A stretch of DNA of 62,539 nt, counting the filler, from Candidatus Babelota bacterium (GTDB taxonomy: Bacteria; JAGOBX01), in the NCBI GenBank assembly GCA_017999075.1. It is 9 parts of 9 records of this genome, joined end to end, with 100 filler letters (N's around TTAATTAATTAA, not from the genome) between each part and the next. Parts side by side here need not be neighbours in the genome. Positions count along the whole stretch, not along the records: positions 27,977 to 34,844 come from JAGOBX010000193.1; 8 more parts are not named here. One strand, 5' to 3'. Position 1 is the stretch's first letter. Every line of letters begins with the position of its first letter. The notes below the pieces were generated by a model. The model was not told where the DNA came from. It saw only the letters and a program-made list of their open reading frames with translations, and did no database searches. The position numbers and the translations under genes were made by a program. Below are positions 29,407 through 32,910 of the stretch, in pieces.

Positions 29407-32400
29407 ATGCAGATTTATAATCCTGTAACGCATTATTCTGTTCGTCAATTGGAAAAATTTAACATTTTTTCTAATAAATCGCTTGAGAAACTTTCTGCTG
29501 GATACAGAATAAACAGAGCATCTGATGATGCTGCTGGACTTGCAATATCAGAAAAGTTAAGGACGCAGGTAAATGGATTGTCTCAAGCTGAAAAAAATAT
29601 ACTTGATGGAATATCTCTTGTACAAACTGCGGAATCCGCGTATTCTGAAATTACCGATATTTTACAAAGAGTCAGAACTCTTGCAGTCCAGACTTCTAAT
29701 GATACTTTAACTGATGAAGACAGGGAATTGGTTCAATTAGAAGTGGCGCAATTGTTGTCTGAAATTGACCGTTATGAAACTGCGGTAGAATTCAATAATA
29801 TAAAATTACTTCAAGGGACAGTTGAAACCAATGATAATGAATTGAGTTTGCTGCAGCAGTATTTGAATGATAATTGGATTGCCGTAGGTCAGCAGATGGC
29901 GAATATGATTTATGATATGAGCGGAAATGTCGGAGGACCGCTTGAAGTGATTCTTGACGCAGGCGCGGCTGGAGGGACGCTGGCTTATGTGGCTACCTGG
30001 ACTTCAGGAAATAATGTTGTGAAACAGGAATTACATATTGAACTTGCGGATTTTCAGCCGGTAACTTTACCAAACGGCGGAAGCAGTCCGACATTTTATA
30101 ATGATAGAATAATCCTGCACGAAATGATACACGCCACCCATGCATGGCATTCTGACGGAGTTTATAGTTTTAATACAGATGTGCCGACCTGGTTCAAAGA
30201 AGCTGCAGCCGAATATTCTCACGGAGCGAATGACAGGGTTTTATACGATGGAGGAATGACAGCTGGCGGGGCAGCGTCTATCAGAACTGTGGATTTGTCG
30301 AATTGGGGAGGAACTTCAAAATATTATTCTGCTGCATACGAAGCTGCAATGTATATGAACAGAACTTACGGAAATGGAGCAGGAGATACAGACGGAGATG
30401 GAAGTGTTCTGGATCAAGTATTTAAAGAAATGGAAACCGGGAATTCTTTTGATTCTGCTTTAGATTATATTGATGACGGAGTAATTAATGCGAGTTTGAA
30501 TGAATCGGGTTTTTTAAACGATTTTTCTAATGATGTTGGTTATGATGCGCAGATTCAGGCAGATGCATCATTTTTTTATAACGGCGGCGGGTTTAATGGA
30601 GGCACAGGCGGGTATTGGGCGATTGACGGTGGTATTGGCGGCGGCGGAAAAACAGCAGAAGACACGGTTGATGATTTGCCCGGAGATGTTCTTGGCGGGT
30701 ATACTTTAACTTTTACTAATTTCGATACGAGTTCGTCGTCTTTAAATGAAGCGCTTAATTTTCAGGTTGGAGCTAACAGAGGCGAAAAAATAATTATATC
30801 TTTAAATCAAATAAATACTCAGTCGCTTGGAATAAATAATTTGAATTTGTCTACAAGAGCGAGTTCTGAATCAGCAATAGATCTGATTGATTCGGCAATA
30901 GCTCAAATGTCAGGATATCGTTCTGATTTGGGGGCAAAACAAAACCGGCTTGAACATATTTATAATTTTGCGAGGATAAATATAGAGAATCAGTCTGCAT
31001 CAGAATCAAGAATACGGGATACTGATTTTGCTGCTGAAATGGTTGAATATACGAAAAATAATGTTATGATTCAGGCTGCGCAGAATACTGTTTCAAAAGC
31101 AAATCAAATACAGTATTCTAACGCTATGTCTGCAATCAATGGTACTGAAGGACTTGAAATATCAAATCAGAAAAATTCAGAAAGGATGCTGAATAATGCA
31201 AAAAAAAGCGCTGCTGCTGTTAATGCGGATATGGAAAAATTATCTTCAGGCAAGAGAATAAACAGGGCGGCTGACGATGCAGCAGGACTTGCCATATCAG
31301 AAAAATTTTTAACTCAGATCAATGGCTTGGATCAGGCAAACAGGAATGTTAAAGATGGAATATCGTTATTGCAGATTACGGACGGGGCGCTTGAAGAAGT
31401 AAAATCTTTACTGCAAAGAATTAATGTTTTATCTGTTCAGGCTGCCAACGATACTTTAACCAATGAAGATAGAAACCATCTTCAGTTGGAAATAGATCAG
31501 CTTTTAAATGAAATAGACAGAGTAACCAGCTCTGCTGATTTTAATGGGATAAATCTTCTTCGTCAGGCAAGCGGTTTAGGTCAGACAACTCCGATAGTAT
31601 TAACTTATTTGTCATCATTGTTGAATATATCTAGGCCTGGAGTGAATTCGAACCTTCGCGGATACGGACCCACAATATACGGCGATAGTTCTAAAATGAT
31701 AGTATGTTTCGGTAATAATCCAGGAAGTGAAGTTAATGTTTTCAGGCTTGATATTGACGGGAGTAATCCTGTTCAGTTAACTAATCTGGCAGGAGCCGAA
31801 TACGATCCTTCTTTAAATAGTTCGGCATCCAGTGTTTTATATAATTACACATCAAATGGATTAATTAATACCTATGATTTATATATTACTGATACAGTAG
31901 GCACTATGGTCAACACTCAGATAGCTCCCTCAGCTTTTTTTGACGGATACGCAAGCTGGAATACCGCATCGGACAGTGAAATTTCTTTTATAAGTAATAG
32001 AAACGGTTCTTTTAATCTTTATAAGGTTGATTATGGCGCAGATGTTGCTTTCGGTAGTGGAGATGATGTTGTTACACAGCTAACTGCAAATGTGAATCCG
32101 GCAGCAAATATGTTGTACAGCTCATTTTCGCCTGACGGAACAAAAATTGCTTTTATATCAGACATCGGCGGGTCATATCAGGTTTGGACGGTAAACAGCG
32201 ATGGCACAGGATTGACAGCATTAACCAACACCGTAGCAAATATCGTGGGAAGCGGTGGACCTAGTTGGTCGCCTGATGGATCAAAAATTCTTTATTCGGC
32301 ATCAGTAGCTGGAACAACAGAACTTTTTTATTCTAATTCTGATAACTCTGGTAGTTCTAAACAGGTAACTTATATAGGAGCGACTTCTTCAACAGGAGGA

Positions 32401-32910
32401 ATTTGGGATCCTAATTCTGAACGCATATATTATCAGACCAACAAATCAGATGCCATGGCTCTTGATATATATTACGCTGACCTTCAGTCGAGCGGTGGAG
32501 TAACAACATCTTCTCCTCAACTTCCTGTATATATTCATAACGGACCGAATTCTAATCAAACTCAGGAAATAGAACGGCGAACCATAAATACTTCTGCTAT
32601 CGGATTAACTTCGTTATCTATATCCACAAGAAACGGCGCGGAATCAGCATTAAATAGTATTCAAAACGCTTTGAATGTTGTTAATTCGGCTTCGTCATAT
32701 TTTGGCGCAATTCAAAACAGATTAGAAATAAATTATGATTTTAATTCATCTTCGAATCAGGAACATATTTCTTCAAGAAGTATGATTACGGATTCGGATT
32801 TTCCTTCTGTATTTACTAATTATACAAAAAATCAGATAATTAACAACGCGGCTATCGCTATGCTTTCGCAAGCAAATATAAATTCAAAATTTTTATTGAA
32901 ATTTATCTAA
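29407..32910 (+). CDS. fliC: Tandem double flagellin: unit 1 with gluzincin-type metallopeptidase insert (flagellinolysin-like), unit 2 with TolB/PD40 beta-propeller insert
   Basis: Two N-domains (LSAGYRINRASDDAAGLAISEK; LSSGKRINRAADDAAGLAISEK) and two C-domains (LGAKQNRLE..SRIRDTDFAAEM; FGAIQNRLE..SMITDSDF..AMLSQAN); HEMIH..WFKEAAAE; FSPDGTKIAF and WSPDGSKILY. Confidence 0.93.
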   Translation: MQIYNPVTHYSVRQLEKFNIFSNKSLEKLSAGYRINRASDDAAGLAISEKLRTQVNGLSQAEKNILDGISLVQTAESAYSEITDILQRVRTLAVQTSNDTLTDEDRELVQLEVAQLLSEIDRYETAVEFNNIKLLQGTVETNDNELSLLQQYLNDNWIAVGQQMANMIYDMSGNVGGPLEVILDAGAAGGTLAYVATWTSGNNVVKQELHIELADFQPVTLPNGGSSPTFYNDRIILHEMIHATHAWHSDGVYSFNTDVPTWFKEAAAEYSHGANDRVLYDGGMTAGGAASIRTVDLSNWGGTSKYYSAAYEAAMYMNRTYGNGAGDTDGDGSVLDQVFKEMETGNSFDSALDYIDDGVINASLNESGFLNDFSNDVGYDAQIQADASFFYNGGGFNGGTGGYWAIDGGIGGGGKTAEDTVDDLPGDVLGGYTLTFTNFDTSSSSLNEALNFQVGANRGEKIIISLNQINTQSLGINNLNLSTRASSESAIDLIDSAIAQMSGYRSDLGAKQNRLEHIYNFARINIENQSASESRIRDTDFAAEMVEYTKNNVMIQAAQNTVSKANQIQYSNAMSAINGTEGLEISNQKNSERMLNNAKKSAAAVNADMEKLSSGKRINRAADDAAGLAISEKFLTQINGLDQANRNVKDGISLLQITDGALEEVKSLLQRINVLSVQAANDTLTNEDRNHLQLEIDQLLNEIDRVTSSADFNGINLLRQASGLGQTTPIVLTYLSSLLNISRPGVNSNLRGYGPTIYGDSSKMIVCFGNNPGSEVNVFRLDIDGSNPVQLTNLAGAEYDPSLNSSASSVLYNYTSNGLINTYDLYITDTVGTMVNTQIAPSAFFDGYASWNTASDSEISFISNRNGSFNLYKVDYGADVAFGSGDDVVTQLTANVNPAANMLYSSFSPDGTKIAFISDIGGSYQVWTVNSDGTGLTALTNTVANIVGSGGPSWSPDGSKILYSASVAGTTELFYSNSDNSGSSKQVTYIGATSSTGGIWDPNSERIYYQTNKSDAMALDIYYADLQSSGGVTTSSPQLPVYIHNGPNSNQTQEIERRTINTSAIGLTSLSISTRNGAESALNSIQNALNVVNSASSYFGAIQNRLEINYDFNSSSNQEHISSRSMITDSDFPSVFTNYTKNQIINNAAIAMLSQANINSKFLLKFI

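Follow-up and report, generated by a model that had tools for sequence, protein, structure and literature searches.

Tandem flagellins: two complete flagellin units, a flagellinolysin-type unit leading, in a single open reading frame of a Candidatus Babelota bacterium and of distant bacteria

Flagellar filaments are thought to grow by the export and insertion of single flagellin chains, both ends of which become buried in the filament core. More than one species of flagellin can be present in a filament, with a stoichiometry that is set by expression, and neighbouring subunits reportedly form non-equivalent pairs on the filament surface through dimerisation of their outer domains, the pairing being non-covalent. 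The flagellinolysins (viz. FliA(H) of Clostridium haemolyticum and HgrFlaMP of Hylemonella gracilis) consist of an N-terminal region, a HExxH gluzincin domain located in the hypervariable region (HVR), and a C-terminal region; those described are single N-HVR-C proteins of about 550–620 amino acids (aa), which enter the filament together with a structural flagellin encoded by another gene (PMC5595980). The giant flagellins of Bermanella and Oleibacter are longer than 1000 aa and display large outer domains on the filament, and each is reported to have one N and one C region, with growth by duplication or insertion within the hypervariable region (PMC6248924). In the present work, we have analysed a stretch of DNA of 62,539 nucleotides (nt) from a Candidatus Babelota bacterium (referred to below, at its full length, as the window), which is made up of 9 joined parts that lie side by side in it and need not be neighbours in the genome. 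One of these parts (27,977–34,844; JAGOBX010000193.1) contains an open reading frame (ORF; 29407–32910, + strand) which, judging from its sequence, encodes two complete flagellins one behind the other, the first of them a member of the flagellinolysin family and the second a flagellin with a propeller insert.

The tandem flagellin ORF starts with ATG and specifies 1167 aa plus a stop codon, with 0 internal stops. The Pfam families Flagellin_N (PF00669; 236 bits against a cutoff of 26.6) and Flagellin_C (PF00700; 95 bits against a cutoff of 23) each match it in 2 stretches, and small hidden Markov models (HMMs) made from the protein's own units place the domains in the order N (12–140), C (486–575), N (593–721) and C (1076–1167). 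The motifs RINRAxDDAAGLAISEK and QNRLE are each found twice, once in either unit. A preliminary description of this gene had claimed a single stop-free frame of 1167 aa with the order N-C-N-C, the retention of both motifs by both units, and the presence of a protease in the first unit and a propeller in the second, all of which our analyses bear out.

Unit 1 opens with N-terminal D0/D1 helices (29407–29826, aa 1–140; Pfam Flagellin_N, HMM 12–140), which are followed by an outer region (29827–30762, aa 141–452) predicted to be a gluzincin metalloprotease of the flagellinolysin type, and by C-terminal D1/D0 helices (30763–31137, aa 453–577; Pfam Flagellin_C 491–569, HMM 486–575). A short spacer, NGTEGL (31138–31155, aa 578–583), about 5 residues of which lie beyond natural flagellin ends, leads to unit 2, which consists of N-terminal D0/D1 helices (31156–31572, aa 584–722; Pfam Flagellin_N 585–720, profile positions 1–136 of 139), an outer region of PD40/TolB-like beta-propeller repeats (31573–32526, aa 723–1040; PF07676), and C-terminal D1/D0 helices (32527–32907, aa 1041–1167; HMM 1076–1167), all of these features being on the + strand. 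All four of the D0/D1 regions match flagellin profiles almost end to end, and the two units are 54% identical in their N parts and 37% identical in their C parts.

The outer region of unit 1 is recognised by the NCBIfam flagellinolysin model NF033876 (277.2 bits against a cutoff of 205), in which residues 109–508 correspond to profile positions 1–384 of 384. It contains the motif HEMIH (aa 238–242; nt 30118–30132, + strand), and the residues H238, E239, H242, E265, and E269 are invariant in an alignment of four tandem proteins, a Glu downstream of the HExxH motif being the inferred third zinc ligand. In unit 2, PD40 (PF07676) is found in 2 stretches (54.3 bits against a cutoff of 20.9). The TolB equivalog model TIGR02800 gives a partial match only (60 bits against a cutoff of 343), and the protein bears TolB-like repeats without being TolB.

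Unit 1 by itself has the same architecture as the described flagellinolysins, and single-unit flagellinolysins are the best non-tandem matches (38–43% identity) among the best 150 of the phmmer search presented below. Unlike them, however, the protein carries a second complete flagellin covalently attached after the C-terminus of unit 1. It resembles the giant flagellins in exceeding 1000 aa and in its large outer domains, but here the whole subunit is doubled, core helices included, and in contrast to non-covalent outer-domain pairs and multi-flagellin filaments a 1:1 ratio of the two subunits would be fixed genetically. In engineered fusions (viz. those with vaccine antigens and the flagellin-FliD fusion of PDB 9m67) a polypeptide is likewise joined to a flagellin terminus, but these are artificial and none among those listed joins flagellin to flagellin. 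No natural flagellin-flagellin fusion was found described in the flagellinolysin, flagellin-fusion or flagellin-survey literature, paper supplements being places where one could be listed. The statement of the preliminary description that the architecture had not been described therefore agrees with the literature, with the reservation that one member, from Clostridium oryzae, is already in RefSeq. The tandem flagellin is a real and so far undescribed variant of flagellin, the C. oryzae member being catalogued there only as 'flagellinolysin'.

The fused frame might alternatively have arisen by mis-assembly, or represent a decaying gene formed by a recent, functionless fusion of adjacent flagellin genes. 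Adjacent flagellin genes are common in genomes, several GTDB loci with matches of 3–5 kb consist of separate ORFs, and the evidence for the junction comes from assembled contigs and not from raw reads. Six public runs from three studies, of wastewater, activated sludge and anaerobic digester metagenomes, contain the stretch, and Logan contigs of four of these (X1, X2, X3, and X5) were compared with the window. Of the sampled words, 0.97 are present in run X1, which is possibly the source sample. In run X2, which belongs to a study other than that of X1, a 700-nt contig extends over 30614–31313 with 17 differences and 0 gaps, and in run X3, from the study of X1, a 223-nt contig extends over 31101–31323 with 0 differences, so that contigs from two studies bridge the junction; in run X5, from the third study, the junction lies outside the coverage. 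No joint, insertion or deletion within the gene was reported from the contigs of the four runs. Where the preliminary description had named a stop, a frameshift or a mis-assembly at the junction as fatal to its claim, these independent contigs keep the frame.

The differences seen in X2 also bear on whether the frame is in use. Of its 75 differences 40 are listed, with 26 of the 40 at third codon positions; they affect 38 codons, 25 of them synonymously and 13 not, and every changed codon within 572–593, including the spacer codons 578 and 579, is synonymous. Since this strain variant keeps the frame and its changes are mostly synonymous, the substitutions look like the result of purifying selection on one continuous frame through the junction. 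A recent duplication or collapsed repeat, and a chimeric assembly by way of repeats, are both ruled out because the two units have diverged to the identities given above and have no DNA repeat longer than 20 nt in common. The fusion is, moreover, retained in relatives at 58%, 36%, and 25% identity and in an isolate genome. An artefact or a decaying gene is thus largely refuted and, in our estimate, very improbable; the tandem gene is confirmed to be real.

Our searches have identified four further full-length N-C-N-C proteins, of the kind that the preliminary description had suggested seeking by domain architecture. Together with the protein of the window (P0001), these proteins (L082, P0002, P0122, and P0158) make five in three divergent lineages, a number that is a lower bound. 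A word-indexed search with the whole protein (280 matches among 8000 scored candidates, the best 120 being listed) returned P0002 (1102 aa) as one long colinear match, and in a BLASTP comparison it is 36% identical to P0001 over 795 columns, colinear straight over the junction. Two more, P0122 (1101 aa) and P0158 (1086 aa), came from an exhaustive phmmer search of 1.84 billion cluster representatives, with the best 150 matches listed; the cluster of P0001 itself and the protein of L082 were both missing from what this library returned. The best stretch of P0158 in this search covers query residues 453–723, and the protein aligns end to end with P0001 at 25% identity. P0122 is the RefSeq entry WP_079422951.1, 'flagellinolysin [Clostridium oryzae]', from a 107-kb contig of an isolate genome. 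Two Flagellin_N and two Flagellin_C matches are present in each of P0002, P0122, and P0158, and the 13 other long flagellins scanned with Pfam are single.

A scan of JGI/ENA metagenome contigs (300 stretches with 232 relatives, the best 80 being kept) yielded L082, a 1159-aa N-C-N-C ORF that is 58% identical overall to P0001, and a copy with 83% identity (L083) which is ended by the contig edge. By segment, L082 and P0001 are 76–85% identical in unit 1, 36–63% in the helices of unit 2, and 21% in the second outer region. Among the 597 ORFs of at least 150 aa in these best 80 loci, the other 141 with flagellin matches comprise 135 N-C, 4 N only, and 2 C only. The preliminary description had considered that the close homologs might all prove to be two separate genes; those that span the junction are fused as well.

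The order N-C-N-C of P0001 departs from the rule of one N and one C region per polypeptide, and among the 349 proteins with flagellin matches that were gathered, 341 have the order N-C and 4 the order N-C-N-C, the other 4 being cut-off or partial proteins with N only. A scan of GTDB genomes found 0 N-C-N-C proteins in the best 80 of at least 600 stretches, in which 42 of the 190 ORFs of at least 500 aa have flagellin matches, and in the PDB all of the best 60 of 80 matches have at most 2 matched stretches (one N, one C). A profile search with the tandem alignment gave coverage above 49% only for the query itself (among the best 120 of 1888 matches with E <= 1e-30, 8000 candidates being scored); as it missed the known proteins P0002, P0122, and P0158, its recall is poor and its outcome is not evidence of rarity.

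The junction between the two units is similar in length in all of these proteins. The preliminary description had taken NGTEGLEISNQK as the linker, and a short linker does exist, but this sequence is in part the N-terminal D0 helix of unit 2: from LEISNQK onwards it is aligned with the D0 helix with which a flagellin naturally begins, and only about NGTEG(L), aa 578–583, is extra. With natural ends taken from the 341 single flagellins (a median head of 10 residues before the N model and a median tail of 2 after the C model), the junction exceeds the natural head plus tail by 5 residues (NGTEG). In L082 the spacer is kept as NG(T/V)EGL (5/6 identical), with a junction free of insertions and deletions. 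The excess amounts to 4, 5, 5, 5, and 6 residues in the five full-length tandem proteins, and the junction is aligned with at most a one-column gap in the four-protein alignment. No such constancy is seen in the sequence of the spacer when lineages are compared (18% identity for P0002 with P0122). Because its length but not its sequence is conserved, the spacer would seem to carry the mark of a geometric constraint.

At the nucleotide level, a 13-nt run, GAAGGACTTGAAA (31147–31159, the codons E-G-L-E of the spacer), is identical in the window and in L082 despite differing third positions nearby, and no difference listed for run X2 falls inside it; this identity may be due to chance, the alignment of the window with L082 being 82% identical overall. 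An internal translation start for unit 2 was also considered. There is no in-frame start codon after this run and no conserved one after the GAAGGA of the spacer, and the internal start is rejected because Met594 is Leu both in the X2 variant and in L082.

The tandem proteins share their first cargo and differ in the second. Unit 1 is a HExxH flagellin in 5/5 of the full-length proteins, and the cargo of unit 2 differs by lineage, being a PD40 propeller in P0001, a VWA domain in P0158, and an outer domain that has no Pfam assignment in P0002 and P0122. No protease-free tandem protein was found among the best 150 of the phmmer search of representatives; such a protein should score about twice as high as a single flagellin, given the summing of domain scores by HMMER, and hence should enter the best 150. 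A single flagellin of 795 aa (P0005) contains five PD40 repeats, and in view of this protein and of the VWA domain in P0158, propeller and VWA cargos occur on flagellins both singly and in tandem.

The preliminary description had proposed two mechanisms, a tethered heterodimer or a polyprotein that cuts itself. An exclusive link with a protease is what would be expected of a polyprotein, the chain of which would leave the cell intact and be cleaved afterwards at the spacer, through its own flagellinolysin domain or that of a neighbour, to give equal amounts of two ordinary flagellins. Flagellinolysins prefer to cut in front of a large hydrophobic residue (P1'), with small or polar residues preceding the cleavage site (PMC7643111), and a fitting residue follows each spacer (viz. 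G|L in P0001, K|F in P0002, H|I in P0122, and G|Y in P0158). However, any flagellin normally has a hydrophobic residue at this place, as its second or third residue, and a spacer of fixed length (4–6 extra residues) whose sequence is free between lineages shows the pattern of a tether and not that of a recognition site. In the filament as generally pictured, the D0 ends would lie at the core, far from a surface protease, and the protease would presumably be unable to fold inside the export channel. The linker would join D0 helices of the core and the protease would be at the outer surface, so that on topology self-cleavage within an assembled filament is the less likely of the two mechanisms, and we regard cleavage into two flagellins as unlikely.

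In a flagellin the two termini are adjacent to one another at the filament core, and neighbouring D0 helices are about 10–20 Å apart; with this geometry a spacer of 4–6 residues, together with frayed ends, can bridge neighbouring D0 helices. The reading that we prefer is that the whole chain is exported, that each of its units folds on itself, and that the pair takes up neighbouring lattice sites while still joined, to which we assign a probability of about 0.5. Transcription of the gene would start from a sigma-28-type promoter, as for late flagellar genes, and its product would be exported through the flagellar type III system using the N-terminal signal of unit 1. N1 would then fold with C1 and N2 with C2, the two joined units would fill two adjacent positions of the filament lattice, and the short spacer would bridge adjacent D0 helices at the core. 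The expected outcome would be that the protease and an accessory domain, be it a propeller, a VWA domain or another, are displayed side by side on the filament surface in a fixed 1:1 ratio, the accessory domain possibly binding the substrate. By analogy with multidomain collagenases, the outer domain of unit 2 might be the substrate-binding accessory of an M9-like protease.

The pairing of helices within each unit can be compared with a different arrangement, in which the chain forms a domain-swapped pseudo-dimer (C1 with N2, and N1 with C2) incapable of normal polymerisation, or in which the protein is no part of the filament proper, being secreted or located at the tip or a junction, with its flagellin ends serving for export only. 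As the natural C- and N-termini are side by side, a C1-spacer-N2 hairpin with a turn of 4–6 residues would be sterically possible. The D0 segment of N2 is also unusually polar, and no other flagellar structural genes are located near the gene. Against this, the four D0/D1 regions retain their nearly end-to-end matches to flagellin profiles, and by their substitution rates N1 goes with C1 and N2 with C2, and not N1 with C2: the D0 identities between P0001 and L082 are 81% for N1 and 85% for C1, and 56% for N2 and 54% for C2, a match of rates that is expected if each unit's own helices pair. Flagellinolysins that have been characterised become part of the filament (PMC5595980). A non-filament protein or a swapped dimer is, in our view, distinctly improbable.

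Several observations weigh against the preferred reading. In addition to the dependence of the junction on assembled contigs, the D0 segment of N2 has a mean hydropathy of -0.95, compared with -0.45, -0.33, and +0.11 in the other three D0 segments, and the D0 identities between P0002 and P0122 all fall within 31–42% and do not discriminate between the folding topologies. No Shine-Dalgarno motif is evident before the ATG. An AlphaFold2 model built on the 4-sequence alignment (mean pLDDT 39.1, pTM 0.29; values above 70 in the D1 helices alone) is too poor to place the units relative to each other. Lastly, linkers that line the narrow central channel could hinder the export of later subunits.

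The origin of the fusion was examined in a tree of the D0/D1 cores (41 rows, comprising 10 tandem units, the nearest single flagellins, and 14 random ones; 223 columns; IQ-TREE quick). Units 1 and 2 of each lineage group with local single flagellins in three separate clades (SH-aLRT 97, 100, and 81), the tree being unrooted and its groups having been named after inspection of it, and a FastTree of 351 units concurs. A single clade of the five unit 1s is rejected (delta lnL 132, p-AU 7e-7); a single clade of the five unit 2s is not (p-AU 0.086). A similar pattern could also result from concerted evolution among cores that have to fit into one filament. Subject to these caveats, the trees speak for more than one fusion, or for fusion and fission in repeated rounds, with the protease unit placed first each time. 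The wider proposal that covalent heterodimers arose more than once, with the protease first, export as one chain, and paired insertion into two successive lattice positions, is put forward tentatively, the odds lying somewhat against it.

If this wider proposal is correct, insertion in pairs would break the textbook picture of a filament that grows by one subunit at a time, and a two-domain enzyme consisting of a protease and a binding module would be hard-wired onto the flagellar surface. A chain of two subunits raises the questions of how the cap handles a pair, whether internal linkers can be tolerated by the narrow channel, and whether the order and ratio of surface domains can be fixed genetically. 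It would also extend the idea of enzymatic flagella to paired modules, in which a protease is combined with a propeller, a VWA domain or another cargo, and suggests a natural template for the 1:1 display of two cargos on a filament. Because one member is found in a cultured, non-pathogenic soil anaerobe, Clostridium oryzae DSM 28571, the question is open to direct experiment.

The tandem gene, which lies by itself in a segment of bacterial chromosome of low GC content, is the sole flagellin ORF among the 97 ORFs of at least 80 aa in the window. On one side of it are ThiG and a gene without family assignment, and on the other side a RRM protein, a GH3 gene, and CheR, the last being the sole motility-related neighbour; genes for ribosomal proteins, EF-Tu, and EF-G are located farther along the stretch. 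Its GC content (37–42%, compared with 21–35% in the flanks) may reflect horizontal transfer or amino-acid bias.

Upstream of the gene, about 115 nt before the ATG, is a putative promoter-like site of the sigma-28/SigD type (29266–29292, + strand), which consists of TTAA, 15 nt, and GCCGATAT. The sigma-28/SigD consensus is TAAA-N15-GCCGATAT, and a strict sigma-28 pattern missed the site because its -35 element has one mismatch to the consensus; GCCGATAT is found 4 times in the window, where 1.44 occurrences would be expected. The 5' leader further contains a 22-nt direct repeat (29305–29348, + strand), each copy of which has a GGA motif (ACAAGGATGT and GCAGGGATGT) that we take, as a lead, to resemble a CsrA binding site. 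The first GGA is in a hairpin loop of the minimum free energy fold, a fold that is not better than those of shuffled sequences (z = 1.08), and there is no Rfam match in the window. These elements are leads that suggest transcriptional and translational control in the style of a flagellin gene.

Some other features of the window, all on the - strand, are of separate interest. Three very large adjacent ORFs of 963, 1183, and 2249 aa are present at 347–13711; the 963-aa ORF has a family-A DNA polymerase domain and the 1183-aa ORF the AEP primase domain of TOTE conflict systems (PF22548, 69.5 bits), and the three may constitute a defence or conflict system. A protein of 1149 aa with F5/8 type C (discoidin) and B-lectin domains is encoded at 17456–20905, in the neighbourhood of radical SAM, GT2, GDYXXLXY, and DUF2157 genes. 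A split, archaeal-style glutamate synthase set is found as separate genes at 36132–41445 (viz. GXGXG, GATase_2, pyridine nucleotide-disulphide oxidoreductase, and Glu_synthase with 4Fe-4S domains). Elongation factor EF-G (45502–47571) is 67–68% identical to two full-length proteins, 80% identical to one partial protein (79% coverage), and 52–55% identical to its counterparts in named phyla. With no full-length protein in the collection searched exceeding 68% identity to EF-G, and those of named phyla at 52–55%, the host seems to belong to an uncultured lineage of wastewater or digesters that branches deeply.

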